This document shows positions 17,770 to 62,703 of a DNA stretch of 64,000 nt, piece by piece. This DNA comes from Lingula anatina (taxonomy: Eukaryota; Animalia; Brachiopoda). The DNA is taken from assembly GCA_051362555.1 (NCBI GenBank), contig CM120644.1:3232954-3296953 (forward strand), read 5' to 3'. The first letter of the stretch is position 1, and the number at the start of each line of letters is the position of its first letter. The notes beneath the pieces are model-generated. The model ran no database searches, was not told where the DNA came from, and saw nothing but the letters and a program-made list of their open reading frames with translations. A program made the position numbers and the translations under genes.

Positions 17770-17914
17770 AAATCTTCACAACAGCAAAGGGAAAACTAAA
17801 AGAGGAAATTGTGAACTGGGGTTACCAACCTTGCAAGGAAGATTATTACAAAGTTCTGTGTAGTGCTGATGTTGCCGTATCCACAGCAATCCATGAGTTC
17901 TTTGGTGTTGCCAT
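17770..17914 (+). CDS. GTDC1: Glycosyltransferase-like domain-containing protein 1 (queuosine-tRNA mannosyltransferase), penultimate exon
   Basis: tttcag|...|gtaag. [47 protein letters not shown](M) matches the GTDC1 WGY...DY...[13 protein letters not shown] motif. Confidence 0.92.
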
Positions 17915-18581
17915 GTAAGCTTAACCAGAAAAGCACCCAGAGACTCTGTCATGGTGGTTCAGTTCTCATTAATTAATAAGTTAATTAAGTAGTTAATTAA
18001 TTGGTCGATCAATCAATAATTCAATCAATTGATCACCACCAATCAAAATTAAGTTTGAAGCCTTCTGCCCTTTCCTGAAAATTTTATCAAAATCTCTCTG
18101 TAACCTTTTCAAGTTAGGCTGTTGATGAACAAACCAAATCTCACAGAAGCAAAAACATAACTTCCTTGTCGGGTAAGGAGGTACCTGTATGTCCACAGAA
18201 AATTGAACAGCCAGGAGACTTGGAAAAAAAGATTAAAATCATTCAGTTTCTTTTAAATCAATTAATTTCTTAAAATAAAAAATCATGGTTTTATGTATAA
18301 TGTTAATTTTCATGCCATTTTAAGTCTATGGAACATTTTATGGATTTTAGACTCGTACCTTAGCATCATTATATGACATTTTTTTTATTTTTACTAACTG
18401 ATATTATGCAAGATGGTCACTTCACTATAATATGTACTGCTTTCAGAATAATATAAATAGCAATAAACGGTGTTTTATTGTATTTTTAAATCCACAGATC
18501 AGCTTTTTTTTTTACAAATGCTGCAAATTTTTATATATTATTACTATGTCATTATTTAACTTCTTCTTATATATATTCTAG

Positions 18582-18813
18582 GCTGGAGGCAGTCCACTGT
18601 GGCTGCTACCCACTAGTCCCCAGCAGGCTGGTCTACCCAGAGATATTCCCAAAGACATACCTGTACAACACACCTGCCCAGCTGGCCAAGAAACTGAGGA
18701 ATTTTTGCAAGTTTCCCCATCTCGTTAGGCTCCATACTCTGGAGGTGAACCCTGTAGACTATTCTTGGGACAGGCTGAAAGGAGGATATAGGGAGCTTCT
18801 GCACGCGGAGTGA
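18582..18813 (+). CDS. GTDC1: GTDC1/QTMAN terminal exon
   Basis: ttctag| acceptor, phase-compatible. (M)LEAVHCGCYPLVPSRLVYPEIFPKTYLYNTPAQLAKKLRNFCK...YSWDRLKGGYRELLHAE*. Confidence 0.92.
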
Positions 18814-21376: not shown

Positions 21377-23795
21377 ATATAAGATGGGATTTTATGTTGG
21401 AAACAGCATATAGTGTACTATTATGTACTAAACGATAACAGAGATTGTGGTTGTGTCCGCAAGCGACGAGGAGCGTCCGCAGACGACGACTAGCGCCCAC
21501 AAGAACTAGCCAGCAGATCTTGAGTCCTCTTGGTTTTCAAATAGGTCTGTTATTGTATGCAACTTATGATAAAAGTGGCTTTAATTCACACCTTTAATTG
21601 TTTGATATAACGAACCCGTTGTCGTTGAACATGTAAAATAGTTTTCTGGTTCTTCGCTCTGCCACCAGGGGAGCATTCATGCTTGAACCGTGCAAGAAGT
21701 TGAGAGAACAAAGGGAGCTCCAGCAATCCTCTATTGATTACAATAATATATTGATCCAGTATACAAGGCGCTATTACATTTCTATCAAAACAGACATCAA
21801 TACCCGTGGTTTTCTTTTCGTCGCCAGTATGCTATTTCAGTCAAGATACCAGTTCAACAAAAACAAAAATAATCTGTTATCAGATTTAGTCCAAGTTAAT
21901 GCGTTGGAAAAAACTCAGTGCAAACTCAGTACATATAAGATGCGACGGGACTGATAATCCAACTAAACAAATTCATCCATAGGGATTTTAAGAATATTAC
22001 CCTTCGATCAAAACTCCTTATTTACTTATTTACTGTCTCACATACCAATTTTTGTGATAAAATCTTATTCAGGGATGAAGTTACGCGCCATACCGATTGC
22101 TACCTCACCACATTGTAGAAAGGTGTTAAATTGATGATTAAAGCTTTCAGTTGCCTATGCTTATACATTGCAACGCGTATCAGCGAACGTAACATTTGGA
22201 TAATTTTCAAGTAACCCTTTCGTTTCAAAGTATTGGTTATTTCTAGCTGAAATCAATTTCCCAATATATGAGAATGAAAATATGGCCAGTGTATGAGATT
22301 GTTTTTGAACATGCTCAAACGGGTCCCCCCCCCCCGCCCCGGCCCCCCGCGTGCACATGTATGCAAACGTACACCAACGTTTGCCTGCGTACTCGAGACT
22401 TATTAGCCGTAATCTAAGGAACCCCTTGCGTTTGTCTGCGTTATGGGTAATTGTCCTCATACGTAAGAGCTACCTGCTATATAGTGCGGCAGTGCCATTA
22501 CTGAAGTGCACTGATTGGACTTGAAAACAAATCAACGCTCAGCTGCCTCTTGTATCATTAAGACCAATGGAAGGCACAAGCTTTTTTATTTCTTGACAAG
22601 GCTTTTGCTGTTTAAGTAAGAAAGAAAATCATATGATTTTTCCCTTTATTATTATTATTAGTAGTATTGCAATAACGTTGGTGAATTTATAGGTAAAATC
22701 ACATCTTGTCTTCGCTAACACAATCCATCGCTACTGGATTCATTCCATTCATTCTACCTTCTCGTTACTGGGGTAAATTAACTGATTTTTCACAAGATAT
22801 TCACAGACGTGTCTTGGACTCACTTTTTCTCTTTTCTCTACTGTGGCCAACGAGAATCTTTGAGAGAATTTGCCTTCTGCAGAGGGCGCCATTGACATAC
22901 TAGTACATATTCAGATTGATAAACCTGGTCACTTTACATCAAGTACCTGACTACTACGTTGGACATTGAGATAAATCGCGTCCGTTCTTCTCTGATTAAA
23001 TCCCGCCCCAGTAAAATTATTGGATTCATTCATATGAACAATGACAAGTCACTCCCATGAAGATTATTTAAGCTAATGAGCACAGGCGTTAAACTCGGAG
23101 ATATAGAATAATCTATTGTTGTTAATTTATAAGAATGTATGCGGTTTGGGTATGTCGTTGACCGACCTAAAACATGTTTCTAAAACGATTAATCGCCGAT
23201 GTTTTGTGCCATAAAAGAAATAAAAGCACGTGGCAGACACATGATACTACAATAGCATAAATACCGGTAGGTAACGACTCAACCCGTGTAACAGCGGAGT
23301 GCATATAACAGAGCAGAATAGGACATTCACACTGATTTAATAGAATTGCCTGTTAGCAGACTTCGCCTTAACTTTTGCTAAGAGAGGGGAGTCCGTAGTT
23401 TTTGAAAACGGAATTTTCTTCAACTTTCGACTTTTGCCAAATCAATATCTATCGCACGTGGTTTTCAACCGCTAAACCGTCATAGTCATACTGGTCACGT
23501 GAGCATCTTCTCCCTCACAGTAAGCCTCAAGGCCATCACTAGTTTCACTCTGTGGAAAAATGAGCATGGTGATCACTTGTAGTTCGTCATTGGCTAAGAG
23601 TTCCACGGATGACCAGTCAAGAAACATATGCAGTTTAAGTGAGCCCGCCTGCAGGGTGACGTTTGCATTGTAGAAAACTCCCATTCCTTTACCGTGAACA
23701 ATATGGCCACTCATTGACCTATTTATAAATATTTCCTGATTTACATGGTCGTATCCAACAACCGTGTGTTCCGTTTCACCAGCCATGAGCTTGAA

Positions 23796-25985
23796 GGTTA
23801 TACGGCACTTCCGGTGTAACATGAAAATCTGACTCCCATGAAAATCTGACTCCCCCCATGAAAATTTGACTCCCCCTCCACAAAACTTTTTAAATTTTAT
23901 TTTATTTTGAGTATATGACTGTTATCTTGTAGTATGTAAAATGGAGGATACATTGGCACTTTTTTGTAGTTTGCAGGTGAAAATGTTCATGAAAAGATAA
24001 GAAAATTAAAAATGTGCACATAATGAAAATCTGGTTCCCCCGTGAAAATTTGACTCCCCCTCCACAAAACTTCATAAATCTTATTTTATTTTGAGTATAT
24101 GACTGTGATCTTGTAGTATGTAAAATGGAGGATACATTGGCCCTTTTTTTGTAGTTTGCAGGTGAAAATTTTCATGAAAAAATAAGAAAATTAAAAATGT
24201 GCACTTAACCGCCCATTGTCTCCCCTATGAAAAAGCTATCTATTTAATATTTGATGATCATTTCAACACCTTTCCTTAACTTTTACTATATGAAGATTAT
24301 ATTGGAAATATTTGAAAGTTTGATGGTAAAATATTGGGTGAAAAAGCATATTTGAATATTCTTTTTCATTTAATTTTCACCCAGTATTTTACCATAAAAC
24401 TTTTAAATATTTCCAATATATTTTTTCATAAAGTATCCTAAAAGAAAAGCTGTCAGAATGATCATCAAATATCAAATAAATAGCTGTTTCATAGGGGAGT
24501 CATTGGGTGTTAGATTACAAATCCTTATTTTTTCTTATTTTCATGTGTTTTATTATTTTTTTTTCACTCAATTTTTTAACCATCAAACTTTCAAGTACTT
24601 GCAATAAATTCTTAGTAAAGTATCCTCAAAGAAAAGCTGCCAGAATGATAATGTAATATCGAATAAATAGCTTTTTCATAGGGGAGTCATTGGGTGTTAG
24701 AATATAAATCTTTAATTTTTATTTTTTAATGTGTTTTTTTCACCCAATTTTTTACCATCAAACTTTCAAGAACTTGCAATATAATTTTCATAAAGTATCC
24801 TAAAGGGAAAGATGTTGAAATGGTCATCAAATGTCAAATAAATAAATAGCTTTTTCATAGGGGAGTCCTGTGTATGGTAAAATACAAATCTTTAATTTTT
24901 TTTCATGAAACTTTTCACCTTCAAAGTAACAAAAAGTGCCAATGTCTCCTCCATTATGCATACTACAAGATCATAGTCATTTACTCAAATAAAATGAGAT
25001 CACAGTCACATACTCAAAATAAAATAAGATTTGTGAAGTTTTGTGGAGCGGGAGTCAAATTTTCATGGGGGAGTCAGATTTTCATTATGTGCACATTTTT
25101 AATTTTCTTATTTTTTCATGAAAATTTTCACCTGCAAACTACAAAAAAGGTGCCAATGTATCCTCCCTTTTACATACAAGATCATAGTCATTTACTCTAA
25201 ATAAAATAAGATTTATGAAGTTTTGTGGAGGAGGAGTCAAATTTTCACGGGGGAACCAGATTTTCATTATGTGCACATTTTTAATTTTCTTATTTTTTCA
25301 TGAAAATTTTCACCTGCAAACTACAAAAAAGTGCAAATGTATCCTCCATTATGCATACTACAAGATCATAGTAATTTACTCAAAAAAATGAGATTAATGA
25401 ATGTTTTTTTTGGTGGGAGTCAAAATTTCATAGGGGGAGTCACATTTCCATTATGAAAAACTGACTGGGGAGTCACATTTTAGGGGAGTCAGATTTGCAT
25501 GGTACACCAGCCTTCCTTGTTTAATAAGTTTGAACAAGAAGTTATAAAGAGAAGTCTTCTCATTATAACTTATTGGTTTGAAGCAAGATTTGCATATAAG
25601 AGAAAAATGAGTTTATTTTTCAATTTTGGATCATTTGAAAATTTTAAAATAAATTTTAGAAATAAATCTGTTCATTTACCTTTAATTTGATGTGTTATTT
25701 TTCATATCAGGGTGAAATTTTACTGCCTGGGGCCAGTTTTACATGCCCTCCCCCCCTGCTGCATTTTAGTGCTTATTTTGGCCGACTGGCGGCAGCACCC
25801 TACGGGTCATGTCATGTCACTGGCAGGCTATACCATTAATGTACCCTGATTTTTTAATATTGTTTATGCCTTGAGTAGAAGTATTTAAATCTGAAGTGTT
25901 GTGTTTGTTGAAGCATAGAAAGTATTTTAAGAGAATTAAACGTTACAATGGAAGTGAATGGGATTTTTAATAGTGGTTTGTAACC
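23796..25985. mobile_element. DNA transposon inserted in the pseudogene exon (imperfect 14-bp TIR, 4-bp TSD TGAA)
   Basis: tgaa|ggttatacggcact...agtggtttgtaacc|tgaa. Removing it restores GTT GGT TTC AAG CTC ATG (VGFKLM), identical to paralog A. Confidence 0.8.
23811..25509. mobile_element. Foldback-type element with long inverted arms built of about 180-bp subrepeats
   Basis: ccggtgtaacatgaaaatctgactccc...gggagtcagatttgcatggtacaccag. Arms at about 23811-24210 and 24880-25509 are inverted. A partial copy lies at about 36780-37081. Confidence 0.85.
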
Positions 25986-27575
25986 TGAAACCAACAATTT
26001 GAGTATTTGGCTTGGGTTTCTAGCAATAGACCCCTTACGTTTTTTTTTGCCTGCAGCTTTTACTGATCTGAAACATATTTAACATCAGTGAAACGGCATC
26101 AGCTCATTAAAATGTCCCGCAGCTGGGTTTTAGACAAATATGTTTTATGTAACCTGAAGTATATGAAAATGACGTAAAGAAGCCGACCGTATAAGCAGTC
26201 ACTTAGGGTAGTTAGGGTACTATAAGAGCTATGATTACTAAACGTTGAGACACTGGTGTTCCTTATTTTCCAGATAACCCCAGTCCTCAATTTCTTGACT
26301 TCTTTGATCGGTTGTTGCACCAGAAGAAGTTTACCGTTTTTCCTCTCCAGCGACAGCACGCGGGATAAGGACCGGACCCCCTGCCAAGGCCGCGTTGGAT
26401 GAAACTGACACGTATCCCAAACGCTAGTGTAAAATGGAAATAAATAAGTAAATCAAAATTTTATGAAAGTATTTGAAGCGGTGAAGGCATGGCATTAACA
26501 ACAAAAAATGGAATGATCAAATTTTGGGCCTATGGATAAAAATAATAAAAGAACAAATTAAATTTATCTTTCGAGCAGCAGAAAAAAAGCATTATGCTGT
26601 ATTTTTTAAATTTTCAGGTCGTATATTTGACCTACTTTTCCCACCCATTCCAAAAGGCAAGGCGAAAACACAGAAAATATTTGGTCAAATTTTTAGGAAT
26701 TTAAGGGGGAAATAAATGCTGCGATATTACTTTAATAAATGATACCAAGGAGTTTTTCAGAAGCGCCACTATCAGTTAAAACACTTCACTGGTGGCATGG
26801 GCTGGGTAAAGCAGCAATGGTTTGCCAGATGTACCCGCTTAATGTACGTCGATCTTTAAAAGCTCATAGTCTATTATCATAAAGACTACTTTACTAGTCG
26901 ATTGTTCGACTTCACCAGTCTAGAAACTGTTCAAGCTATTGCTTTTGTTGCATGTATTTTGGCGACATTGAACCCATAAGCGTCACACCGTATTTTTGTT
27001 TTACTCCAAATTTGATAAACGGATGAAAAATAGACCGTTATTGGAAACCAGCATGATAGGATTACCTTGACGAAGGTTGTGATTTTTTTTCTAAATATTA
27101 CATCAATGTTTTCCCTCGTTTGGTGTCTGTATAATTCCCAGCTTTACTGTCTAGTTTAGGCCAGGGCCGTTATCGATTGTAGCAACAAACACTTTTACGA
27201 ATTTTAATTCTGTTTTTTGTAAAAACTAAATTTTAATACCTAGGTATACGATATATCATTGGTACCCATTTTTTTCAAAGCGGAACTATAAGGTATATAT
27301 GTACAGTTTATTTTAATGATCACTTTAAGGGTAACGGCTTATCCGTTAACATAATCTCCAGACAATCTGATAATGAAGGTTAAAAGTACGGGTCACTGCT
27401 GGTAGTATACTCTGTAATCTGTGCCCATATCCAAAGCCAATTTGGTACAATTTGAATGAGAAAAAAAAATTAAAAAAAAAAAAAAAACAGGTGGGGACGC
27501 TATTAATTAAATCAATTACAATCTCTTTTCTGCACATCCCCACCAGTGACTGGCGGTGGATTAGACGGTGTCTAA

Positions 27576-27620
<45 letters not shown>

Positions 27621-29508
27621 TCTCAAAAAGGATTTAACTCAAGTAATAACAGGCATATATCAATGTATTGTCAATACATACATACATGCATGTGCCCCTG
27701 CAATGAAATCGCATGCTTAGTTTGATAACATGGAAATTCGCTTGTTTTACATGTATCTATGAAAACCACTTAAGTCACATACAAACAGGGTCATATTCAT
27801 AGAATAAGTGATAAATCCCATCGTATGCCATAAGTCCACATGGGTCGTTAATGAAGTGTTCGGGAGTGGTGAAATGATACTGGGGTCGCCATCTTTCATG
27901 ATATAATTGTGGTGTGGGCGGCCGTGGACGTCGGCTGTTGATGCTCGCCGGCTGCAGTATGATGGTCATCAAAAGCAAAGTCAGAGATCTCATCATTTTT
28001 TAACTTATTAGACAAAACCCTAGCTTGCAATGAAAATGGTAGACTCTACATGTCGTGGCAGCAGCCGTGAAAATAGCCCTAAAAGAGCGATGACAGGGAC
28101 TATACAGATGATTGTGTTGAGATGGTTAAACGCCTGGCTGCCTTTTTTTCTCTATGGCCGAACTAAGTGACCCTGGTGTCAGTCGGTGTCCAGACAGCTG
28201 TAAATAAATTAAATGTGTTTACATGAAGAGCCAGTGTGTCTGCTTTTGTTACCTTTCTCGTTGCGTGCACTTAATGTGAGATTATTGCGCTGCCACCTTT
28301 GGGGTTCGATGCTAATCACAGGGTCCACAGGTAGTCTGTTACAGTATTATTGTATCGGCCTTTACTTTTATTTTGTATAGGCATGAAATAAATTACATAA
28401 TTATGTCCATGGTACAGGCCTGTCATTTTAGAGGTCTCCTGTCATCAGAGGGTGATGGTTCTATATATCCTCTTCAAGGGTCACTGTGTCCGGAACAGTG
28501 CAAATTTAACAATGATCTAAAATTATAAACAGGCTTGAAATACGGACACCGTTGTATACTTCACGGTTGGACAGTGCGTTTATACTACTTTTCATATTTG
28601 TGGTCAAAATATTTACGTGTAAATCGCCATGAGGAAATCCAGCGATGACAACAATAATCAGGTTCAATAAGCATTTATGTTCACTCGTTGCTTGTTCAGG
28701 TGCATTCTGCCTATTTGTGGGGAGTCCCACTCTTTTTAAAATTAAAATAATATTTTTTTTTTAATATTAAAATATCAAACCAAGACAAATGATTCTTGAA
28801 CTTAACTTCTTAATCAGATTAATTAACAAGCCATTTTTAGCTCTTTAGACTTAACAAAAAGTATTATAAGGAATTACGGAACACTAACAAGGGGAAAGGC
28901 GAAATAGAGTAGAGGTAACGTACCTGCTCTATTTTGCGTTAAGCTCAGTGCCGAGCTCTGTCTGGTCAAAAAGAAAAAAACATGGCACTGTGAAATTACA
29001 CTAATCACGGTGTCCTACCGAAACATGACACCAGTGGGAGAGTACCAGTGGAGCGTTGAACACGTATTGTGTTCTCTCTTATAATGAAAATCGATTTTCG
29101 TGCAAGGGGTGAAGATGACCGCGTTTATAACCGAGCAATATTCCTTTCATTGGGACGGCGGGTGGCAGATAAATATTTCTAATTGCTTGTGGGCTTGCCA
29201 AAATATAACTTGTTCACTAGCTAGGCAGTTACAGTGGCCCTACCTAAACTGACTTTATGCCGTGCCTTCACACGAAAGACGAATTGTAAAATTCTTCTTT
29301 TTTTTTTTTAATTCACACGTCCCTTCAAAAGGCTGTTTTTATGGGCGATGAATAGTTAAAAAACTACGCATCACACCTTTTAGGTCAAATATACACTTCA
29401 TTTAATTATCCTCAAAGAATTATATCTATAAGTCTTCAAACCTCTTTGTATCATGGACGGTCGCATCATGTTGTCCTAAGCACCACCAGGTTTTTCCCCA
29501 CGCGTTAC

Positions 29509-30715: not shown

Positions 30716-31438
30716 CTATTTTTGGGTGACACCTATTTTGACGTGGCGCCGTAAAATAGCAGCAACAGGTATCCTCTCTAATATTTTGAATATCAACAAT
30801 ATCAGAAATGCGTAACAAGTGCATACTAAGAGAATAACATGCGTTTGCAATGAGCCGACTATACCAACAACCGAATGCACGCCACAGAGAAAAGAACAGT
30901 CAAATCTGAAGAATCTTCTAGAAGCAAATTTTGCCTTGACTTTAGCGAGAAGAGTAGAATCAGTAACTTTCGATGATGGAGTTTTCGACTTTCTGTTACC
31001 AGTCCAATATTTATCCCACGTCGTTTTTAACTGATACACCGTCATGCTGGCAACCTCAACATCGTCTCCTTCACAGAAAGCGCGAAGGCCATCACTGGTT
31101 TTACTCTTTGGAAAAATGAGCGTGGTGATCACTTGTCGTCCGTCATTGGCGAATAGTTCCACGGATGACCAGTCAAGAAACATATGCAGTTTAAGCGAGC
31201 CCGCCTGCAGGGTGACGTTTGCATCGTAGAAAACTCCCATATTCTTGGTAATATGGCCGCTCTTGGATCTATCTATGAAAACGTGGCGTTTTATGTGGTT
31301 GTATCCAACAACCGTGTGTTCCCTTTCACCAACCATGAGTTTAAAGCCCACTTTTTGTGTCTTTGGTTTGGGTTTGAGTTGAACGATGATTTCAAGCAAT
31401 CGCCCCTTTACTTTTTTGGACAACAGTGTGTCATTTAT
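30716..31438 (-). CDS. GH32 glycoside hydrolase A, exon 6 (beta-sandwich, linker, hydrophobic segment)
   Basis: tttcag|ATA, phase 0. IDRSKSG and LHMFLDWSSVELFANDG...ITTLIFP are GH32 C-terminal motifs. Confidence 0.9.
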   Translation of the reverse strand: MNDTLLSKKVKGRLLEIIVQLKPKPKTQKVGFKLMVGEREHTVVGYNHIKRHVFIDRSKSGHITKNMGVFYDANVTLQAGSLKLHMFLDWSSVELFANDGRQVITTLIFPKSKTSDGLRAFCEGDDVEVASMTVYQLKTTWDKYWTGNRKSKTPSSKVTDSTLLAKVKAKFASRRFFRFDCSFLCGVHSVVGIVGSLQTHVILLVCTCYAFLILLIFKILERIPVAAILRRHVKIGVTQK

Positions 31439-31790
31439 CTGAAATATTGAACGTGTATAAATTATAGATTCAAGCCTTTAAAATCTTCTCTGACGTAGGG
31501 CTGAGGCCCGTCATCTGAATAATTTGAAATATTAGCTGATCTTTATGTATATTTAACTCAATTTACACAAAGCAGAATAATTCCCAATAAATTATGAATA
31601 TATATAGTTAGTTGACATGTAGTTGTTGACTTACTTTAACTAAACCAGGCATACTGATTTTTTTTTAAATAAAAGCAAATTAAAACAACTAATAAGAAAA
31701 AAAAAATAAATGAAAAGATTAGGTTGGTTAGTTTGATCACATAAATGGTGACCAAGATCGACAGTAAATCAAAAAGCTAGGATCACTTAC

Positions 31791-31971
31791 AGACGCAATG
31801 GTGGTGTTATTAAATTCCCAGACAACCCCAGTCCTCAATTTCTCGACTTCTTTGATCGGTTTTTGTACAAGAAGAAGTTCTCCCTTTTCCCTCTCCAGTG
31901 ACAGCACGCGGGTTAAGGACTGGGCCCCCTGCCAAGGTCGCGTTGGATGACTTCTACATGATTCCCATACG
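31791..31971 (-). CDS. GH32 glycoside hydrolase A, exon 5
   Basis: ccag|...|gtaagt, phase 2 to 0. PTRPWQGAQSLTRVLSL...LLLVQKPIKEVEKLR. Confidence 0.9.
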
Positions 31972-32362
31972 CTGGTGTAAAATGTTTTAATTAATTAATT
32001 AATGGACGGCGTGGAAAATACATTTTAAAACATAATTTAATTTAATTCTTTTACGTTAAAATAAACTCGTGAAATTGAAAGAAATATTTGGTGGAGTCCG
32101 ATTGTAAGCAGACAAAACACTGACAGGTGATGTAACATTTTTGTCTTCATGCTATTAAAAAATTGCTTTTTAGATAAGTTAATTTCTATTTTTATAAAGA
32201 AGGAAATTAATTTATTGAGGAATAAAAAGGAAAGCATTAAATGGATGGATTGTAAGTGTTTCAGTGATTCGATGGCCAAATGGAAGCCAAATGATGAACA
32301 ATAAGCTTAAACCCATTAGTAGCTTACACTACAGAGAAAAAAAGAGAAAATTTTGGCCTCAC

Positions 32363-32495
32363 CACATCCACCCTGTAATCAACACTCGATCGTCCATATA
32401 ATTAGTCCACGTCTGAATGGCGGTGAAGTCGGGACCAAAGTCTAAAATTTTGGCCTTGGTTTGGTCAGCAGTAAACTTTTTCCCGTCAAATTCCC
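32363..32495 (-). CDS. GH32 glycoside hydrolase A, exon 4
   Basis: ttcag|...|gtgagg, phase 1 to 2. GEFDGKKF...LDFGPDFTAIQTW...ITGWM. Confidence 0.9.
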
Positions 32496-33286
32496 CTGAA
32501 AAGAGTAAATGTAGATAGAAGCATCTCCTCGTTTTTTTACTCGGTATTCACGTCTAACTTATTTTTATTTACATGTTATGTATTATACCAAATCAACGTA
32601 TTTTGGCGTTCTAGGAATTTGATGCGGCACCATTAGGCGACTCCTAGCCTTGACACTTGAATATCTCCAAGCCACCGGTGGGGGGGGGGGGGGGGGGGGG
32701 GGGGTTAGTAGGTAAGACAAAGTGGTTAAGTTGTTAATAATTATTTGAAATAAGAATTAAAAAAGTGTAATAAATTAGATTTCCTCGAAATCAAGGTCGG
32801 TCGCGCTCAATAACCAACTGAAGAATTGAGTCTGGCTTAAGTCTTCATTGTTGGCGCCGTTATATTTCAGTATAAAAAAGTTTCTACTGCACAATATTTT
32901 ATTTAATTGGACTACTATTTGGGTCTAAATATTTAGACAAGTTTTAGGGACTACAGTTCTTTTTGGGAAACCTGCCGCAGTAGCTAACAGTCTCAAGGGG
33001 GTGGGAGTTTTTTTTTATGAAAAAAAGTGAACATATTTGTCCCCTTAATTGATCAATAGTGAGAATCGGTAGAAAACTACGATGATTTCATTTTGATACA
33101 GATTGGGCCTTACTCGGCCAAAGGGCGGCGGTTCTTCCGCCTCCCCTTTTCTAACTGGTCTTATTCTGAGAGTATCGAGTCCAGTATATCCGTTAGGCGA
33201 CCTCACCCAAAGTAAACTATAATATAATATAATATAATATAATATAATATAATATAATATAATATAATATAATATAATACTCATAC

Positions 33287-33672
33287 CAGTCCAATACATT
33301 ACAGTGCGACGAGGCCGTGAGTAAGCTCCGGTCATGGACGGCAAAACCCACTTCGATATATTTTCACCTTGCACTTTTAGTTCAACGAAATTTGGTGTCT
33401 CCCATTCTTTGTTAAATATCAGTCCTTCTGGGCCTTTCTGACTCAAGTATGTCCAATTTTTCAGATCTGGGGAAGAATAAAACTGTACTGCTCTTTGCCC
33501 CATTGCTTGTGCAACCACCATTAGCCAGCGGTCTGATGGTTTATGCCACATTACTTTCGGGTCTCGGAAGTGGCTTTTTCCAGTTCTCAGAACTGGATTC
33601 TTGTCATACAACGTCCATGTTATCCCGCCGTCCAAACTATAGGCAAGTCGCTGATCCGATTCGATGAAGGTC
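33287..33672 (-). CDS. GH32 glycoside hydrolase A, exon 3 (RDP and acid/base Glu motifs)
   Basis: ttaag|...|gtatga, phase 2 to 1. QRLAYSLDGGITW, FRDPKV, YSSPDLKNW, WETPNF. Confidence 0.92.
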
Positions 33673-34024
33673 CTTAAGAAATGCAAAGTGAAAATGCTAG
33701 TTGGAAGATCTACATTTGACCATATTGGCCTAAATATATACTGTACATACATAAACTGATTAGTTGATCTTTAATAAGGAGCCCTTATATCTTCAACTTA
33801 ACGGTTATAACTGAAACATAAATCATCATCGTCATTATTATTATTATTATTATGATTATTAATATTATCATTATTATAAAAACACTGATTAATTATTGAT
33901 TTAGGGATGGCAATCGGATGGTTTGTTTCTAACTTTGCGCGAGACTAAAGCCTCGTTCTGAATTACATCTCGAGCAATCGGCCTCTGCTCAAAACCCAAG
34001 CAAAAGAAGTCTTGCTGCACTTAC

Positions 34025-34226
34025 GCGACTTGTCCAGTGAAAATGATAACCATGGCAGTGGCTCTGTCGGTGGAAAACCCAGTGGTATTTTGAAAATCCA
34101 TCACCGCACTGCCGCTAAAAGCCAAGATTCCAGCCTGTTCGGGTATGGCGAGTGGCCAAATCTCCCAATGAAGCAAATCCGTGCTCACTGCATGCCCCCA
34201 GCTACTGTACAATGTAGGTCCCTTAC
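34025..34226 (-). CDS. GH32 glycoside hydrolase A, exon 2
   Basis: ttcag|...|gtaagt, phase 1 to 2. WGHAVSTDLLHW, FSGSAVMD.NTTGF. Confidence 0.92.
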
Positions 34227-34432
34227 CTGAAAATATTTAATGTATAGTTTATGTCTGCACAGATGCTGTATGTGTCTGTTTATATTCTCTGTCTGTCCCT
34301 GTCGTCGTTGTCGCATGAAAGTTCGACACATCAGTTCTTAAAACCGCCAAAACTCAGTTTCGTTTTACTTTCAATTTACTCTGCGTGGGTTTGTTTGGTT
34401 AAAAGGTTCTTTCGAAAATCATCATCGGATCA

Positions 34433-34998
34433 GAGAAGAATTTCATCAGCTGTGTTAAGTTATAAGAATGATGTGATTTTTTCTTCAGACAACAGCTAAT
34501 ATTGAGATAGGTTTTACCTCCAATATTTCGATGTCTATCTGAACATCTTCTTCAGAGAATGAGGCTATCCAGGTGAATAGCCTCTACTCAGGAGGTGTAC
34601 TTGCACCTGAGAAATTGCGGATATCCGGAATGGGCATTAAAAGAAGGAGAAAAGATGGGAAAGAAACAAAAACAAAGAAGTGTCCATACCACAGCTCAAA
34701 ACAGTGACGAAAAAGAGAAAAAACAAGTCATTGTTTTACCCTACACCAGGGGGGTCTAGGAACGCTTACAACGGACATTTAAAAAATACAACATTAACTT
34801 GTACAACAAAGCAGGGTTCACCATCCGGAATGCAGTAGTAAGTCCCAAAGACCCAATAGACAACAATGAAAAGTGTGGAGTTGTCTATGAAATGGAATGT
34901 GAGGGGTGTGGTGAGAAATAGACCTTGAAATATTGGAGGTAAAACCTATCTCAATATTAGCTGTTGTCTGAAGAAAAAATCACATCACATGCATTCTT
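34433..34998 (+). mobile_element. Truncated Penelope-like retroelement with inverted pseudo-LTR ends
   Basis: About 70-bp inverted repeats (34469-34538 and 34918-34987). Interior reads CGYPEW...VLPYTRGV*ERL...PKDP...KCGVVYEMECEGC (start of GIY-YIG). 14-bp flanking direct repeat tcatcatcggatca. Confidence 0.82.
34518..34560 (-). ncRNA. Candidate minimal hammerhead ribozyme in the Penelope pseudo-LTR
   Basis: Minus strand reads uucu-CUGAAGA-a-GAUGU(loop)ACAUC-GAAA-uauu-ggag. Confidence 0.5.
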
Positions 34999-35672
34999 TC
35001 ATCATCGGATCATTTTTTTACAAGTTGTAGTATTCTGCCACATTTTGTGTGGCGTTTTGCCACGTTTTGGCGACATATGTCCCATAAGTGTGAGACCGTA
35101 TTTTTATTAAACTTTAAATTTGATAAGACAGGTTGCTATTGAAAATCGACATGATACAACTGTAAGATAATTATTACATGATAGGATTGTAATAACGAAG
35201 AATAATTATTGATATTTCCCCTAAATATTGCTACAAAGTTTTTCGCTGTCATTGCTGGCATCTGTATATTTGCATGTTTTACTGTCTTGTTTGGCTGGAG
35301 ATCATCTTTGTTTGTACCAACGAGTGCTTATACTAAGAAGAGTTTTTTGTTGAAACTAATGAAGTTAGTGGCCCATGGATAATAATGTGACGGACGGTAC
35401 TCAGATTCATTATCCTAGGGTACTAAAATGCTCGGCCTCCACAGGCGACACCTTGCAGAACCAGCGTGCATAATCCGGGGTGTTAACAAAAAATAACCTT
35501 GTGGCGCGTCACTAATGATACGTTGTATTAGAGTAACATGAGACCATGAAAGCATAACTGTCCAACCAAGAAGTTATAAAGAGACTTTTATAACTTCTTG
35601 GTCCAACAATGAGCTGTCATGAGGGTCAGGGCCACTGTAAAGCTAATTTGTTAACTATTCAAACGTTTTCAT

Positions 35673-35733
<61 letters not shown>

Positions 35734-37296
35734 CTTCACAGTTTTGCTGATATGGGTTATATATGAAATCAAGATCGAGCTGGCAAAACTGACATCTAGA
35801 ACCTTAGGTACAATGAGCTCATCCAACCTGAAAATAGAGTCAATATTGGAGGACCATGAACGTCGATGCCTCCACTATGCCTGTCACTTGAAGAAGGACT
35901 ATACTGCTGGTTTATATCTAGGTCAAAGTACAGTAGGGTCAATCTAAATCCTAATATTCAGACCAGTTTTCAGGCTGCAGCTCTTCTGTGCTATTGCCAG
36001 CAGTTTCAGGGGGGAAGGGGGCTACCTGAAATTTAAATTGACTTTTTAACCCCGTAGATGAGCTACACTGAATAATAGCAAAGAATCTAGATTAAATGTA
36101 TCCAGGTTTAATAAATCCAAGTACTCGACCACACGAAAGTCTATTCAAAGCCATAAATACTTTTATGTGCCCTCCATCCCAGCCTACCGCAAACCTCCAA
36201 AGTCTCATTTATACTATATATAGAAAAGAATGGCACCCGGTAGGCCGATATGCTGTTTGAGAGTTGGCCAAATAAGACCGCTTTTATAAATGACCCCACT
36301 GTTCTTATTATTTTTACGATGTAACAATTGGTTGCCTGTATTAGGCCCCCTAAATGTCACGGACCAAGGGATAAAATACATGCCAATTATTTAATAAGAC
36401 CCATCATCCTGAATGTTATGATGTCATGAGTCAGCAATTGTTATTATTTTTAAACATTTCTGCACAAATTTCTCTTTAGATCGTGTCCTCCATACATAAC
36501 ACGTTTTATCATACGTTTATGTGTGTGCATTTCTGTAAGACCCGCTTTACCATACAGAAAAGGTATGAAATAAAGCGATTTGTTTACTCAAAAATGATGG
36601 GTTTTTACCAGGAGAAAACTGACATTGTTTGTTGTGGGTACTTTATTTTTACAGATCTACGTGTAGGTGTCTAAAACAGGTGTTTCGCGCAATAATATAA
36701 ACTGCCAGCAGGTTAATTTCTCTACACCCAAACCCAATATAGAGCTGTAAATGAGGTCACAGGCATGCACTTTGAAAATTAAGTGCACAGGTTAGAAATT
36801 ATGTTTGATAATTTTATGGTCTCACATGAAAAAATAGAATACACATTTTTAATTTTCTTATTTTTTCATGATTGTTATTTCATTTTTCACCATCAAACTT
36901 TCAAATATTTCCAATATATTCTTCGTAAAATATACATTTCTAAATTTCTCATTTTCTCATGTTGGGGGGGGGGGGGGGGGGGTCAGAATTTCGGGGGGGG
37001 GGGGGGGGGATCACATTTTCGTAATGAAAATCTGGCTGGGGAGTCACATTTTAGGGTAGTCAGATTTTCATGGTACACCGGAACACGTTACAAAAAAGCC
37101 CACGGAAATTACATGTGGATTTTTGTTCTATTCACACATCCGTTTTAAAGATTGAATACTATTTTGAATTCATTCATTTTTTTTTGTTACATTTCAGCTT
37201 GTTAAATGCGCCTCTATATTGGATTTGGGTGTTTCATCAGGTGTAAAATTAAGTGAATAATTAGAATAGAATAACAGATTCAAATCTGCTACATAC

Positions 37297-37516
37297 CAGC
37301 TGGATCATATCCATAAAACAAGTGATAAATCCCATCGTATGCGATCAGTCCACAAGGGTCGTTCATGAAGTTTTTGGGAGAGGTGAAGTGATACTGAGGT
37401 CGCCATTGTTCATGATACAATTCAGGGGGAGGTGGCCGTCTAGGTCCACAGTTTGCGATCCTCGATAATATACTAATAGTGAGCACCGTGAGGGTAGTCT
37501 TACTGGTAGGTCCCAT
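37297..37516 (-). CDS. GH32 glycoside hydrolase A (bacterial levanase/exo-inulinase-like), coding exon 1
   Basis: ATG plus signal-peptide-like N-terminus. [24 protein letters not shown]...YHLFY. Donor G|gtatgt. The six exons total 1845 nt (614 aa plus stop) with no internal stop. Confidence 0.92.
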
Positions 37517-39696: not shown

Positions 39697-39806
39697 GCCT
39701 AAATTTTAGACTTTGACCCCGACTTCACCGCTATTCAGACGTGGACTAACTATATATTGGCGATCGATTGTTGATTACAGGGTGGGTGTGGTGAGGCCAA
39801 AATATT
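39697..39806 (+). pseudogene. Orphan inverted copy of GH32 exon 4 including its splice donor
   Basis: aaattttagactttgaccccgacttcaccgctattcagacgtggactaac...ttgattacagggtgggtgtg|gtgaggccaaaat closely matches the reverse complement of 32349-32455, with indels. Confidence 0.85.
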
Positions 39807-40530
39807 CGACTGGGTTCCCATCCCTAGATCCATCTAACAGGATCGGTCCATCTCCACGGGGTTTCTCGGCTTAGGTGGGGTTTCTTCAGCTTAAGTGGCT
39901 TAAATGTCTTACCTGTGTGAGAATATATTCTGGAGTAAGGCTTCACACAGCGGCAACGTGGATCGGTAGATGTAACTTATTTTAATAAGTTCAAACTGTG
40001 GTTTTACGTAGATCCAATGTCCGGGAGGCTGTTTTACCAGTCACTCAGTTGACCTGATGCTGAAAAGCAAGCGTTTAACAAACATTAGAAAAGAAAGAAA
40101 CACGATGCCGGGCTAGCAAGATAACTGGTACCTTGAGCGGTGTAACAAGAATAGTATTTTTTGTCCACTCGTACCCCGGTAGTACTAAAGGAGCACGGTG
40201 CATCTTCACGTACTTCTGTTTTATCAAAACTTGATTAGACGTTACACAGACGCATAGGGAAAACTAGTCGAAATCAGTGTACAGCTAGGCCAATAAGACC
40301 GTTCACAGTAGGTCACGGTCAGTGCGACCGTGACTCCTGATAACCCCCGCGTGGATAATAACAGGGCAAATAGCGACAGTTAAAGCTGTTAAGTTATCAA
40401 TCGTAACCATTTCGGACTCCCCGCTGTCTACATCGTGTCCCGTCAAGCAGCCTGTGCAATCATACGCCCCGCTAGTCCCAAGCATTGTTCTGGTGTAGAA
40501 CGGCACGTGCCCTTTGTTATGACATGGAAG

Positions 40531-55769: not shown

Positions 55770-56204
55770 CTTAAAAAAGAATCACATGAAATTTAAGCTG
55801 TTTCGTTAAGATTTTTTTTGTATAAAGAAATCAATGCATATAACACATCTTATGATTTTCTTTCATGGAGCCATCATTATATGAAATGGAAAATAAACAC
55901 TTTTTCATCATTCCCAGAAATAGACACAGCGATGAAACAAAGAGTACAACATATTCCTTTTAACTCTCACAATTCAGAGGCACCTCTTCCATTATATAAA
56001 GTGTACTCTATATTTTGTATTGTACATTGCCAGTAAATTTAACTTGAAGATTCAGGGAGTTTTACAAGTCCCACCTATAAAAATGGTAGAAAGTATTACA
56101 AAGAACTTGACGAAGTAGACGTCACCTCAAAGTCCCGTAATAAACATCTGTTATCAGAGAATGCAGATCGAAAACACCACTTGATAATCTCTGCATATGC
56201 TTAC

Positions 56205-56364
56205 CAATAAATCCTATACTTCTTCCCAACACAAAGAGCCCGTTTAGTGCTCCAATATCGATGTACTCCTGTGCCTCTTCTCTGGTGAAGCAGTCACATG
56301 ACCTCAGCATGTCCGTCATGGCGACTCCGATAAAACCATCCACATTCAGGATTAAGTTGGGTTT
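56205..56364 (-). CDS. ACLY: ATP-citrate synthase exon
   Basis: [14 protein letters not shown]...[16 protein letters not shown], with AG/GT boundaries. Confidence 0.97.
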
Positions 56365-56623
56365 CTGGAATTTGAGGCAAGGTGTTGAATCTACAATTTT
56401 TTTTAGGGGGGGAGGGGGGTACCAGGTTTTAACATTCACTGAAGATGAATTTATCAAAAGCTGATGTTAACTTATTCATTTTACATTACAGTAATTGCAA
56501 TTATACTTACAATGTCATTCTATTTTTTAATATTGTGATACCACCTAAATGACTCATAGACATCAAGTGAAAATGTTGGTGGAATGGGCTGTTTTCATCC
56601 AACGCTTCCTGCAGCTAACTTAC

Positions 56624-56737
56624 CTTGGATGTGGTGATTTTCTCAACTTCTATGGCATAGTCCAGGAGGGGAGTAGATGGGAATGTTTCCTTCACAAACT
56701 TCTTTAATATCACAACTCTCATGTCAGGATTGTTGAT
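56624..56737 (-). CDS. ACLY: ATP-citrate synthase exon
   Basis: [38 protein letters not shown]. Confidence 0.97.
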
Positions 56738-57383
56738 CTGTGGGTAAAGATAATAAGTCCATAACTATACAGCCACTACCAGTAAATCTGCTATTCAACA
56801 CAGTCAAACTACAATTATGACCTGGCCTTTTCAAGGGGGAAAATTAAGGATCTTTTGGATACATAATATCGGTACCTTAAAATATATATTCTCCATTAAA
56901 AGATTAAGTCATTACCACATCTCACAAATCAAGTTTCATGCCAGATTTCAACTGATTTCAAAATGTCCAGTCTTCTTCACAATATTCACCATTAGCTTAA
57001 AGTGATAATAACTCTTCGTTTCAGCCAAAAAATGAATTTTCCTGGAGCAAACAACAATTTTCCCATACTTACCAATGGTTAATGAATCCATTTTTACATT
57101 CAAAGTTAGTCCCTGGTTTTTTTCTAAAAAGTTTGGTTTTTTGTTAAAATCTCTTAAGAGATTTTAACAGAGTATAGCCATCAATGGAGGTCATGTGGTC
57201 TAAAGACAAGCTCAGATATCAGAATAATAGCTATAACAGCCGTTTTTGTGGGAAAACAGTATATATTATATTTTTATGAGTCACTCACAATGTTTTTATT
57301 GTGAAATACAGATTTCATACGAAGAGTTATTATCCCTTTAAGATATAAATTATCAATAAACATTATGTGCTCAGTGTACTCAC

Positions 57384-57527
57384 AGATTTAACTCGGTGCC
57401 CTATCCCCATGATAAGCTGTCCTTTCTTCCTCATGGTGTTCACAAACTCCATGGGAATCATGCCGGCGTCAAATGCCTCTGTGAACTGCTTGGCTGCTCC
57501 GTCCAGCGCCCCGCCAAACCTGTCTCC
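57384..57527 (-). CDS. ACLY: ATP-citrate synthase exon
   Basis: GDRFGGALDGAA...LIMGIGHRVKS. Confidence 0.97.
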
Positions 57528-57679
57528 CTGGAATACGAAGAATGTTAAATCGAAATCAACTTCACATATCATACTGTCTCTCGCGTCTCTGATACCTGGT
57601 CAGATTTCAAAAGTATAATATGTACTGTACACTGGAATCTGTCACAACTAACAGATGGAGGTACCAGTATGTCACTTAC

Positions 57680-57830
57680 AATGGTCAGCAGACCAGAGGT
57701 GAGGCAGGAGACCAGATCTTTGCCAGCTCTAGCACAGACAATGGTGTTGTGGGCTCCAGACACGGCTGGACCGTGGTCAGCAGTGACCATCAGACACATC
57801 TCTAGAAATTTACAGGCATACTTGGGAAGT
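57680..57830 (-). CDS. ACLY: ATP-citrate synthase exon
   Basis: [50 protein letters not shown]. Confidence 0.97.
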
Positions 57831-58062
57831 CTGGAATGAAATGTTTGGAAACACTAGTACATATATTAGGTCTCATATAAAATGATAAGATTATTGCCAT
57901 TGATATCTCGAGACAGGGATTTCTGACTGAGAAAGCAAAATTAATGTCAAACTGCGATTTCATAGTGCAGAAACCAAACCAATTTGTCCAAGAAGAGAAG
58001 CATTAAAAGAGCACAAACCTCTGCCAAGGCAGCTCATTTCTTATAATTATCATAAAGATATC

Positions 58063-60389
58063 AAACTAGAGGATCAGAGAGGCGATAACGCCTCCGAATA
58101 TTGTACCACCAGCTGGAGCAAGCGCATTCGTATAGACCCCCACATACACAAAATAAGGGACACAGCCACCAGTTTTGTGCTTGACAAGCTGTAAAAATGC
58201 AATCAACAAGAATTTTTCAACTATTGCAAAAATTATATATGGTACAATCAAATTTAAGTTCTTCGTAAGGTAGGTCAAGGGTCAATTTCAAGGTCACAGT
58301 AAATTGCTAGTATATGACTTCCTATTCAAGTTCAAGAGTAACTATGGACCTATCTCTGTCAAGTTTGAAGTTAAAAGAGAAAGAAATTAGCAGAGTTCAG
58401 TTCATGATAAAAAGTAGGTCAAAGGTCAATTTCAAGGTCACATTTAGATTGCCAGTATATGACTTGCTATTCAAGTTCAATAGTAACTACGGACCTATCT
58501 CAGCCAGTTTTGGAGATAAAAGGAAAGCAAAATTTGCAAAATTCAGTTTATGGTGTAAAGTAGGTCAAAGGTCAATTTTAAGGTCACATTTAGATTGCCA
58601 GTATATGACTTCCTTTTCAAGTTCAATAGTAACTAAGGACCTATCTCTGCCAGTTTTGGAGATAAAAGGAAAGCAAAATTTGCAAAGTTCAGTTCAGGTG
58701 AAAAGTAGGTCAAAGGTCAATTTCAAGGTCACATTTAGATTGCCAGTATATGACTTCCTATTCAAGTTTAATAGTAACTACGGACCTATCTCAGCCAGTT
58801 TTGGAGATAAAAGGAAAGCAAAATTTGCAAAATTCAGTTCATGGTGAAAAGTAGGTCAAAGGTCAATTTCAAGGTCACATTTAGATTGCCAGTATATGAC
58901 TTCCTATTCAAGTTCAATAGTAACTATGGACCTATCTCTGCCAGTTTTGGAGATAAAAGGGAAGCAAAATTTGCAAAGTTCAGTTTATGGTGAAAAGTAG
59001 GTCAAATGTCAATTTTGAGGTCACATTTAGATTGCCAGTATATGACTTCCTATTCAAGTTTAATAGTAACTACGGACCTTTCTCAGCCAGTTTTGGAGAC
59101 AAAAGAAAAGCAAAATTTGCAAAATTCAGTTCATGGTGTAAAGTAGGTCAAAGGTCAATTTTAAGGTCACATTTAGATTGCCAGTATATGACTTCCTATT
59201 CAAGTTTAATAGTAACTACGGACCTATCTCAGCCAGTTTTGGAGATAAAAGGAAAGCAAAATTTGCAAAATTCAGTTCATGGTGTAAAGTAGGTCAAAGG
59301 TCACTTTCAAGGTCATAGTAAGATTGCCAGTATATGACTTCCTATTCAACTTCAATAGTAACTATGGTCCTATCTCTGCCAGTTTTGGAGATATAAGGGA
59401 CTAAATGTTATAATTTTGGAGTTACCATAATGTGCCTTAAATTTCGTACAGAAAAAATTAATTAAAATAAAGAAAATGTCATTTTGGTCAAAATTCTTGA
59501 AATAGGAGGTGCTCTGAAGTTTCAGAAGTTCAAATTTGATGAAATAATGTCATTTTTGAACACAGGTTGTCTGCTTTGCCAAGCCTTATGTTTTATTTTT
59601 CCAGAGTTCAAAATTTATTATCCATTACCGTACTGCACATTTTGCTTTTACCACCAATATGTACTTTTGATACAGCATAATTCGAAAACCGTATGGAATA
59701 CAAAAAAACCGAGACCACCTCCAGTGTTGGGCTTTACATGCTCTACAAAATGCAAAAAAGAATGGGTCTCTAGCATTAACGGTTCCCGAATTAGAGACAG
59801 TTTTCAGTTTCGGTATCTTATGGCCGCTACTCCCGTGAAAATGCACCGATTGACCCCAAATTCATGGAGATGAAAGATGACCTGAAGGGTAACACCTTCC
59901 AATAATATTATTGGTTAAGTCTGTGTGGTGTCTGAATAACAGGGCAAAAAAATTTTTTTCGTAAAAAATTTCATTTTTTTGAAAATTTTGGCCCATTTGA
60001 CCTTGGAGTAAAGGTCAAAGGTCAAATCCAAGGGTATATTTGAAATCTACACATATGACTTTTGGAAAGCCGTCTATAGAAATTTTTCCCATAACTCCTT
60101 CCGTAGGGTAGATAATTAGCATTTAATTTTGCCATTTTTAGACAAGGGTGCATTGCAATGAGTGCCACACCCAGACCCCAATACCGACAAAGCCCAAATT
60201 TTAGGTGGAACGAGTTGAGATTATAGGTGACCTAAATCCATGAGATGGGTACAGGGGCCCTTACCGTCTAGGAGGAGAAGCGGTAACGGTAGCCGTCCGG
60301 CGGAGCCGGCGGAGCCAACGGAGCCGGCGGAACGATCCGGACGGGACCGAAACCATGTGTACCGCCAGCGCTAACGCTGGTGGTACAAT
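58063..60389 (+). mobile_element. Helentron-associated (HINE-like) element in an ACLY intron, nested in a smaller element
   Basis: 14-bp subterminal inverted repeat attgtaccaccagc (58100-58113) / gctggtggtacaat (60376-60389), terminal hairpin gtaccgccagcgctaacgctggtggtac, cggagc short repeats, and an internal tandem array. Confidence 0.7.
58265..59400. repeat. 146-bp tandem array, about 8 copies
   Basis: gccagtatatgact anchor at 58451, 58597, 58742, 58888, 59034, 59180 and 59326. Confidence 0.95.
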
Positions 60390-60566
60390 TATTATCATTA
60401 AATTAATAAATTAATCACCAAAATCTAATCAATTTCAAGTAAGCCCATTTCTGACATCTGAACATTTCATGAAATTCCGTTCATGAATTTCGAATCAGGC
60501 CAGTTAAAAATAACAAAAAACCAACCAAGTCAAACACAGATCTTCCTTGGCGGTGGTAATAATTAC

Positions 60567-60721
60567 CTCCTCTGGAACCAGAGTAGACTGAGCACACCAC
60601 CTATCCCAATGTCCTCCTTAAAGATGTCCGTGATGGGCATCCCAGCATACAACAGTTCCTGCCCGCGCTCATCACAGATGGATGTCATGAAAGACGCTGG
60701 TTTTCTGATCAGGCCAAGTTC
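60567..60721 (-). CDS. ACLY: ATP-citrate synthase exon
   Basis: [51 protein letters not shown]. Confidence 0.97.
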
Positions 60722-60723
60722 CT

Positions 60724-60724
<1 letters not shown>

Positions 60725-60772
<48 letters not shown>
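60725..60772. repeat. (TAA)n microsatellite adjacent to an ACLY acceptor
   Basis: Direct reading. Confidence 0.9.
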
Positions 60773-60773
<1 letters not shown>

Positions 60774-61100
60774 TAATAACCAGAAAAGCTTCAGAGAGCA
60801 CATGCAGACCTCTACCAAGGTAACTCAGTTCTGGTTATTATTAATCAATGAGTATTTTTTAAGTTTTTTTCCTTTCATTCTGGCTAAGGCGTAGTTTATG
60901 TTGCATAACAAATATATTATACCACAAGGTGTGCATGCATGTGCCTGCATGTGTATATTTACTCCATACTCTACCTCACACTTAGTTTATGAGACTAGTT
61001 GGTGATACCATCACATAACATAAATTATACTACATGATGTGTATATGTACCCGTGTGCATGCATGTGTGTGTGTGTGTGTGTGTGCGCGTGCATACTTAC

Positions 61101-61194
61101 CCTGGCCCAGGCGTAGTCCATAGGTACAGTGGGTGGTGGAACTTCAGGTGCAGGCACTATGTCTCCCTGCTCCACTAGGTTATCATATACTGTC
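61101..61194 (-). CDS. ACLY: ATP-citrate synthase exon
   Basis: [31 protein letters not shown]. Confidence 0.97.
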
Positions 61195-61775
61195 CTGGAA
61201 TACACGTTTACTTTATTTCTTAACACCTTATTAAGGGTACAAAATGTAGGATCTGATGAGGTACATAATTCACACCGCAAAATTAAATACCTGCTCAGTA
61301 TGTACCCCAAGCTAGGTTAGGCACACTTTAATATATAATATAATATAATAAGTATAATCTGTTTTAAGTTGGTCAAGTATTTCTTTATTCTTAACTGGAA
61401 GTACATTAAGCTTCATTATTAAGAGTGGAAAAACATTGTAAAATCATTTATATCTTAATCTAAAAAATACAAAAAATGTACTATGCATTAAAAAAATTAG
61501 CTCTAAATGCTGTAGGAATTTACAAGACAAAGGTGAATTAAAGCAATTTGAAATATATTACAATAATTCCATGTTAAGTCTTCATTTAATATCATTATCA
61601 CTGCTATTATCATTTATTAATTTTACAAAATTATACTTATTTTTGGCTCACAAGTATCTACACATGTTAACAACTCACACATACATTCACATTATTACAC
61701 ACTCAGCCTCTAACACACATATCATCAACCCTTGATTTCATAGTTACTCCATGACATGATCATCACAACACTTAC

Positions 61776-62580: not shown

Positions 62581-62703
62581 CTGGAGAGTAGAGAACGGAA
62601 TCCAGAGATGAAAGTGGAGCTTTAATATTTTTTTTAAATGGTAAAAAAAGTGTACAGGGAATTCAGACTTTAATGCTGTTCCCAGCAGGCTTCTGACTCT
62701 CTC

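Follow-up and report, generated by a model that had tools for sequence, protein, structure and literature searches.

Genes for enzymes of glycoside hydrolase family 32 (GH32) have been captured by animals many times. The accessible text of a 2024 survey covers more than 3300 animal genomes and reports such genes in 940 of them, spread over nine phyla and with 0 to 14 introns, and invokes repeated bacterial transfers (PMC11311677). The usual explanation for such bacteria-to-animal transfers is a diet of plant sucrose and fructans. Here we analyzed a 64,000-nucleotide stretch (the window) of the genome of the brachiopod Lingula anatina (contig CM120644.1, positions 3,232,954 to 3,296,953), which carries an intron-bearing GH32 gene. 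The gene is a genuine, transcribed gene of the host, and with its Lingula paralogs it is probably an independent case of horizontally acquired animal GH32, a well-known class. On balance, and with some reservation, we favour the reading that the gene encodes a spliced, transcribed enzyme that is predicted to be surface-anchored, likely releases fructose by cutting fructans or related sugars, and likely stems from one old bacterial transfer followed by duplication. The kind of system is known; this case belongs to a phylum not yet recorded and has a predicted membrane anchor and a divergent pocket.

The bacterial SacC-type levanases and exo-inulinases (PDB code 8i12; homologs from Marinimicrobium, Balneolaceae and Planctomycetota) share fold, catalytic triad and motifs with the window protein, and are 40–43% identical to it and about 47% identical to its paralog LOC106154361. 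Unlike these enzymes, the Lingula protein is encoded with five spliceosomal introns and has seven N-glycosylation sequons, a C-terminal membrane helix and altered pocket residues; it carries the motifs WMCxWxxC and PRRxVxY, in contrast to the WMNNW motif and GGSG loop of the bacterial proteins. Among animals, the GH32A levanase/inulinase genes of gall midges, thrips, springtails, rotifers and the annelid Streblospio went through the same kind of event, with bacterial capture, intron gain, duplication and divergence, according to the accessible parts of the survey (PMC11311677). Lingula differs from that set as a marine suspension feeder of a phylum outside the listed nine, and the GH32A sequences are not included in our trees. 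Lepidopteran BmSUC1 (PDB code 7bwb) is likewise an animal GH32 of the same fold ascribed to bacterial transfer, but it is of the sucrase type and distant in sequence (131 bits, against 282 for the exo-inulinase); lepidopteran GH32 genes are intronless in the same source (PMC11311677). The exo-inulinase of Aspergillus awamori (PDB code 1y4w) and the yeast invertases are also secreted, glycosylated eukaryotic GH32 enzymes, yet they score below the bacterial proteins, and the fungal rows fetched lack the membrane anchor of the Lingula protein.

The text and supplement of the survey, whose classification figure is not readable as text, do not list Brachiopoda and contain the word Lingula zero times (PMC11311677). 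Nor do the accessible text and supplement of the Lingula genome paper mention GH32, levan or horizontal transfer (PMC4595640). Among the papers listed by our literature searches, which do not reach most subscription journals and of which the looser ones were limited to the top 4–30 entries each, there is no report of a brachiopod GH32, so that in the literature searched the transfer had not been described. A preliminary description of this DNA had regarded GH32 as a gene of few animals, acquired by horizontal transfer. The extent given in the accessible survey text is far wider, at nine phyla and 940 species (PMC11311677). The introns and the duplication, which it had taken as signs of an old acquisition, are both real, yet they are ordinary for a class whose transfers are widespread and whose genes have up to 14 introns.

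Six minus-strand exons of the window join in frame to 1845 nucleotides that encode 614 amino acids and end in a single terminal stop, and introns 1 to 5 (3070, 352, 791, 391 and 352 nucleotides) are all of the GT..AG type. This gene model, proposed in the preliminary description, was rebuilt from the window sequence and matches an existing RefSeq model that is labelled uncharacterized (LOC106157566; P0001, 614 amino acids, on a 606-kb contig). Exon 3 as a query gave a 100% match to it, and the two proteins are identical at 613 of 614 positions. The sole difference (Ser46 versus Ala) indicates that the window and the RefSeq model probably come from different individuals or haplotypes. Pfam domain Glyco_hydro_32N was found on exons 1–4 and Glyco_hydro_32C on exon 6, both above the curated cut-offs, while the match of exon 5 is weak (E 0.079) and lies below the cut-off. 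A fold predicted from the single sequence (predicted local distance difference test, pLDDT, 33.8) was discarded in favour of an alignment-based AlphaFold model with a mean pLDDT of 88.7. The best Foldseek matches of this model are GH32 exo-inulinases, with template modelling scores of 0.85–0.91 by target length and 1y4w at the top. The protein is therefore a GH32 enzyme as first described, with a Glyco_hydro_32N propeller of five blades followed by a Glyco_hydro_32C sandwich, and with the catalytic triad.

Transcription was followed in four RNA runs from three studies, mapped onto positions 30400–37800. In run X12, a poly(A) run of which about 6% was used, the mostly exonic bins have a depth of about 15–37 on one strand, consistent with transcription from the minus strand, and depth is zero in several bins of the introns. 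The X12 reads span the predicted splice sites of introns 5, 4, 2 and 1 (21, 53, 36 and 29 reads, respectively). The junction of intron 3 is absent among the junction rows listed, to which 15 more not shown would have to be added; a TATAA repeat next to it cuts the reads short, and the RefSeq model uses this junction. The junction support suggested as a check in the preliminary description was thus obtained for four of the five introns. In run X18 coverage is low but spliced, and its reads depart from the window by fixed differences, including Lys283 to Met, which matches paralog P0002; these reads are likely derived from P0002 or from a diverged population. Among the best-supported read variants, synonymous changes make up 6 of the 9 in X12 and 10 of the 14 in X18.

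These reads also bear on the alternative that the gene belongs to a symbiont or a food organism and was joined to Lingula DNA by contamination or misassembly. Against it stand the spliceosomal introns, of which intron 1 shares a host repeat (family D10) with the flanking DNA, and the spliced poly(A) reads. In addition, at least half of the sampled words are contained in seven conspecific DNA runs, which come from three studies and of which one is possibly the source of the assembly. The nearly identical RefSeq protein lies on a 606-kb contig, and paralogs are found on contigs of 470 and 702 kb. Contamination is very unlikely, and we give almost no credence to the alternative as a whole; the location in the host genome argued for earlier holds. 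Codon composition did not discriminate, with a GC content at third codon positions of 0.47 against 0.61 over 194 ACLY codons.

A protein search gave 7151 matches at E<=0.001 among 8000 candidates, of which the best 120 were listed. The top four are Lingula proteins (599–1444 bits), followed by the best non-Lingula match at 414 bits. The non-Lingula matches listed reach at best 40–43% identity across the greater part of the catalytic core; where named, they are all bacterial or metagenomic; no named animal other than Lingula is among them, in a database whose coverage of other brachiopods and phoronids is not known. Among the best 150 of 1.84 billion representatives, only P0002, P0121 and P0377, all of the Lingula clade, exceed 50% identity. 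In the PDB, the exo-inulinase 8i12 scores 282 bits, the Aspergillus exo-inulinase 256, the yeast invertases about 200, BmSUC1 131 and plant enzymes at most 89. The GTDB relatives of LOC106154361 (P0122) belong to Bacillota, Bacteroidota, Verrucomicrobiota, Balneolaceae, Marinimicrobium and Streptomyces. A search for short fragments (30–214 amino acids; best 120 of 248) found nothing above 56% identity, and the nine top ones resemble bacterial N-terminal fragments. Among 276 pattern matches, viral contigs contributed one distant locus (32% identity) and no sign of a viral carrier, and the 7 of 64 parts of the Joint Genome Institute metagenomes that were scanned contained no clade member.

Three trees were computed: a FastTree tree of 371 rows, an IQ-TREE tree (LG+G4) of 55 rows hand-picked after the FastTree tree had been seen, and a C20 mixture tree. 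Rows with fewer than 380 profile positions (including the fungal P0067) were dropped, except P0002, P0057 and P0377, as were near-duplicates of at least 72% identity (from 499 to 371 rows). In all three trees the four Lingula paralogs and P0377 form a clade of five rows (support 100/100) in which P0122 branches first. This clade is nested in a levanase-like group among bacterial SacC-type levanases and exo-inulinases, inside an ingroup that has 100/100 support with respect to the ScrB-like outgroup rows in the IQ-TREE tree, and the protein scores below the NCBIfam cut-offs for scrB_fam and BfrA. Search and trees, the checks suggested beforehand, agree that the nearest non-Lingula relatives are bacterial SacC-type GH32 proteins. 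The SacC-type kinship of the preliminary description is thus borne out, but its specific affinity to Bacillus is not: Bacillaceae rows stand apart from the Lingula clade in the IQ-TREE and C20 trees, and a specific Bacillus donor, when considered, found no support. Transfer from bacteria is the simplest reading and, although not demonstrated, a very probable one.

GH32 enzymes use an Asp/Asp/Glu triad in a retaining double displacement, as set out in the accessible text of two reports (PMC3360783, PMC6560043). The triad is intact in the window protein (Asp53, Asp178 and Glu232), and adjoining motif residues deviate (NDPCG, ETP). By established GH32 chemistry, Asp53 would act as the nucleophile, Asp178 as the transition-state stabiliser and Glu232 as the acid/base. 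In the Aspergillus exo-inulinase, Trp38, Trp65 and Trp335 form a narrow exo pocket, according to the available text (PMC6560043). Two of these three residues align to Phe50 and Pro77 in the window protein and only Trp316 is kept; with Gly69 at the position of the conserved Gln, the narrow pocket of three Trp and Gln is not found in this copy. Paralog LOC106154361 retains the canonical exo-pocket residues. Cys314 and Cys319 occur in all five clade rows and, judging from the sequence, may form a disulfide.

The C-terminal helix is clear both by hydropathy and in the structural model, and a basic tail of 21 residues follows it directly. A hydrophobic C-terminus is found in 4 of the 4 clade members that have a C-terminus (19-residue means 2.1–2.7), against 1 of 307 other fetched GH32 proteins of 450–750 amino acids; the end of P0122 resembles by eye a glycosylphosphatidylinositol signal. 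One moth GH32 in the accessible supplement of the survey also ends hydrophobically, and the trait is therefore not unique among animal GH32 proteins (PMC11311677). The signal peptide noted before is plausible, but by hydropathy, the measure applied to it, its hydrophobicity is weak: its highest Kyte-Doolittle mean over 10 residues is 2.17, and paralogs reach 2.95 and 3.0. The N-terminal hydrophobic segment, the C-terminal helix and the seven sequons together predict a cell-surface ectoenzyme, which may be of type I topology with a cleaved signal peptide and a short cytoplasmic tail. The anchor and the altered pocket, both missed earlier, imply that the window copy is better described otherwise than as a plain secreted levanase. 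We read it best as a fructan hydrolase that is anchored at the surface, has its pocket widened and probably works in the gut.

Two sets of observations weigh against the favoured reading, of which the first concerns the protein and its expression. Residues that are nearly invariant in the 145 non-clade rows are replaced: Gly69 stands where 143 rows have Gln, Thr233 where 132 have Cys, Thr294 where 136 have Tyr, and Cys55 where 139 have Asn. Activity on fructans may therefore be changed or low. Furthermore, runs X15 and X16 of one study, two of the four RNA runs, lack exon coverage; and although fructans are both produced and broken down by marine bacteria, knowledge of their sources in the sea is poor, according to the accessible text of PMC13000452. 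The substitutions, together with the loss of two pocket Trp residues, the longest path from the clade root (IQ-TREE, C20) and the patchy expression between runs, would suit an alternative that keeps the bacterial origin and assigns the window copy to another glycan, to fructose transfer or to surface glycan binding in mucus or microbial recognition, with LOC106154361 doing the ordinary job. The triad and Arg177 are intact, however, the Arg within RDP, and not the Tyr, is said to modulate the acid/base in the available text of PMC3360783, and the yeast invertase row P0083 likewise has ETP. We regard this alternative as unlikely, while taking it seriously.

The second set concerns the trees, which contain nine fungal rows and no other animal, protist or plant GH32. 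Their backbone is not resolved and no donor emerges; the recurring sister P0366, a bacterial-looking row, is weakly supported (96/63 in IQ-TREE). In approximately unbiased (AU) tests, the grouping of Lingula with Aspergillus-type inulinases was not rejected (p=0.157). This result and the thin sampling of eukaryotes leave some place for a eukaryotic source, such as a dietary fungus or protist, or for an older animal GH32 lineage, of which the annelid Streblospio gene would be an example, that was lost in most lineages. Introns, signal peptide and anchor are eukaryotic features, and the accessible survey supplement contains an annelid levanase-like GH32 (PMC11311677). Patchy retention of glycosidases has a precedent in brachiopods, where the accessible text of PMC7003070 argues for such a history of the GH13_1 amylases. 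On the other hand, the AU tests rejected Lingula with the yeast-type invertases (p=0.0007) and with all nine fungal rows (p=0.0004), the Aspergillus-type rows themselves join actinobacterial rows (94/94), and bacterial matches outscore fungal ones (414 versus 256 bits). The clade motifs WMC and PRRxV occur zero times in the animal GH32 supplement as available, where line wraps may conceal motifs (PMC11311677), and the matches listed, as noted, name no other animal. Such an origin appears rather improbable to us.

Returning to the reading of a bacterial capture followed by duplication, the other Lingula paralogs are LOC112041625 (P0002), LOC106159959 (P0121) and LOC106154361, with alignment identities of 88%, 50% and 51% to the window protein; P0377, a fragment of 318 amino acids, is 56% identical and shows the same clade signatures. 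In the RefSeq model of P0002, signal peptide and nucleophile motif are missing, and the sandwich is incomplete. Paralog-like X12 and X18 reads over exon 1 and the exon 5–6 junction suggest that this model may be truncated by annotation. The duplication stated in the preliminary description is real, but the second copy within the window is a broken pseudogene. No match to exons 2–4 was found in it, hence it has neither the RDP motif nor the acid/base Glu. Its identity with LOC112041625 was considered and ruled out, as the sequences differ. Arrays of 182–187-nucleotide units in both orientations (23838–25455) break up its exon 6.

The GH32 gene lies between two other genes (Table 1). The ACLY neighbour named in the preliminary description is confirmed by its matches to PDB chains and Pfam. 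The GTDC1 assignment is softer; we take this neighbour to be GTDC1-like from its motifs, and its exons have an ESM Atlas match and no Pfam match. Of the animal transposons said to surround the gene, degraded remnants were found, to which names can be given only tentatively, and 0 of 132 scanned open reading frames match a transposon family at E<=0.01. Within intron 1 (34469–34987), inverted repeats of 70 nucleotides (97% complementary) enclose a piece of 379 nucleotides, whose translation resembles a fragment of a GIY-YIG/Penelope-type retroelement, with no database match. Degraded open reading frames at 49838–50558 (minus strand), in part repeated near 47700–48360 and accompanied by local duplications, have no Pfam match and resemble the end of the reverse transcriptase of a long interspersed nuclear element. 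An ACLY intron holds 7.8 tandem copies of a 146-nucleotide unit (58270–59398; 92% matches). An open reading frame of 985 codons (13757–16714, minus strand) contains 39 copies of a 45-nucleotide repeat rich in Thr, Ser and Glu and mucin-like, after which comes a Cys-rich region that resembles somatomedin B (E 0.0009, short of the cut-off); a second open reading frame is at 10767–11375 (minus strand). The 985-codon frame runs on the other strand than the exons of the GTDC1-like gene, and an intron of that gene may enclose it.

Table 1. Positions of the GH32 gene, its partial copies and its neighbours in the window.
Feature	Position	Strand	Remarks
GH32 exon 1	37297..37516	-	Start codon ATG at 37516; signal peptide (putative); FMNDPCG motif with the nucleophile Asp53 (codon 37360-37358); RNA depth about 30 in X12
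GH32 exon 2	34025..34226	-	SWGHAVS and FSGS motifs; junction reads on both sides
GH32 exon 3	33287..33672	-	RDP with Asp178 (33563-33561); acid/base Glu232 in WETP (33401-33399); PRRxVxY motif of the Lingula clade
GH32 exon 4	32363..32495	-	Propeller blades IV-V; Thr294 instead of the usual Tyr
GH32 exon 5	31791..31971	-	Remainder of the WMCVWxxC motif (Cys314 codon across the exon 4/5 junction; Cys319); end of propeller; junction reads
GH32 exon 6, coding part	30716..31438	-	Encodes the beta-sandwich (Glyco_hydro_32C), a stalk, the membrane helix and a basic tail of 21 residues, then stop; transcript extends below 30400
Predicted transmembrane helix, residues 575-593	30782..30838	-	Kyte-Doolittle 19-residue mean 2.73; AlphaFold helix 565-596
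Degenerate tandem GH32 copy	23355..27996	-	Open exon 1 (ATG 27996), exon 5 (about 26424-26243), remnants of exon 6 that contain stops; broken up by host repeats
GH32 exon-4 fragment	39697..39807	+	Inverted, frameshifted, splice donor kept; 88% over 94 nucleotides
ATP-citrate lyase (ACLY), upstream neighbour	56125..63254	-	Exons; gene extends past the span; E 1.9e-27 to PDB ACLY chains; Pfam Ligase_CoA
GTDC1-like glycosyltransferase (presumed), downstream neighbour	17787..18813	+	Final two exons, limits approximate; matches group-1 glycosyltransferases in the ESM Atlas

Lingula anatina is a burrowing lophophore feeder, and the grazing host of the preliminary description does not apply; literature abstracts confirm the lophophore only. 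In the explanation that we propose, a bacterial SacC-type exo-fructosidase gene would have entered an ancestor of the lingulids, and would then have gained introns, N-glycosylation sites, the Cys pair and the membrane anchor, and duplicated. The window copy, with its pocket widened, would act as an ectoenzyme at the gut surface on longer or differently linked fructose glycans, the gut site and the substrate both being suppositions. Such glycans would come from filtered bacteria, biofilm and algae.

That a marine suspension feeder has retained, duplicated and expressed such a family adds a phylum absent from the 2024 survey to the pattern of GH32 transfer. It suggests that coastal seston or sediment holds fructose glycans worth digesting, a pool that is largely unexplored according to the available text of PMC13000452. 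The series of paralogs from a canonical to a remodelled pocket, all with a predicted anchor, allows the domestication of a captured enzyme to be tested directly. Only tentatively, and as a rather doubtful proposition, we suggest a brachiopod-specific family of membrane-tethered GH32 enzymes that arose from a single old bacterial capture, with the pocket of the window copy rebuilt for a marine fructose-containing glycan. If true, Brachiopoda would have in this family their first case of the kind, and it would provide a probe, from the animal side, for the fructan pool of the sea.

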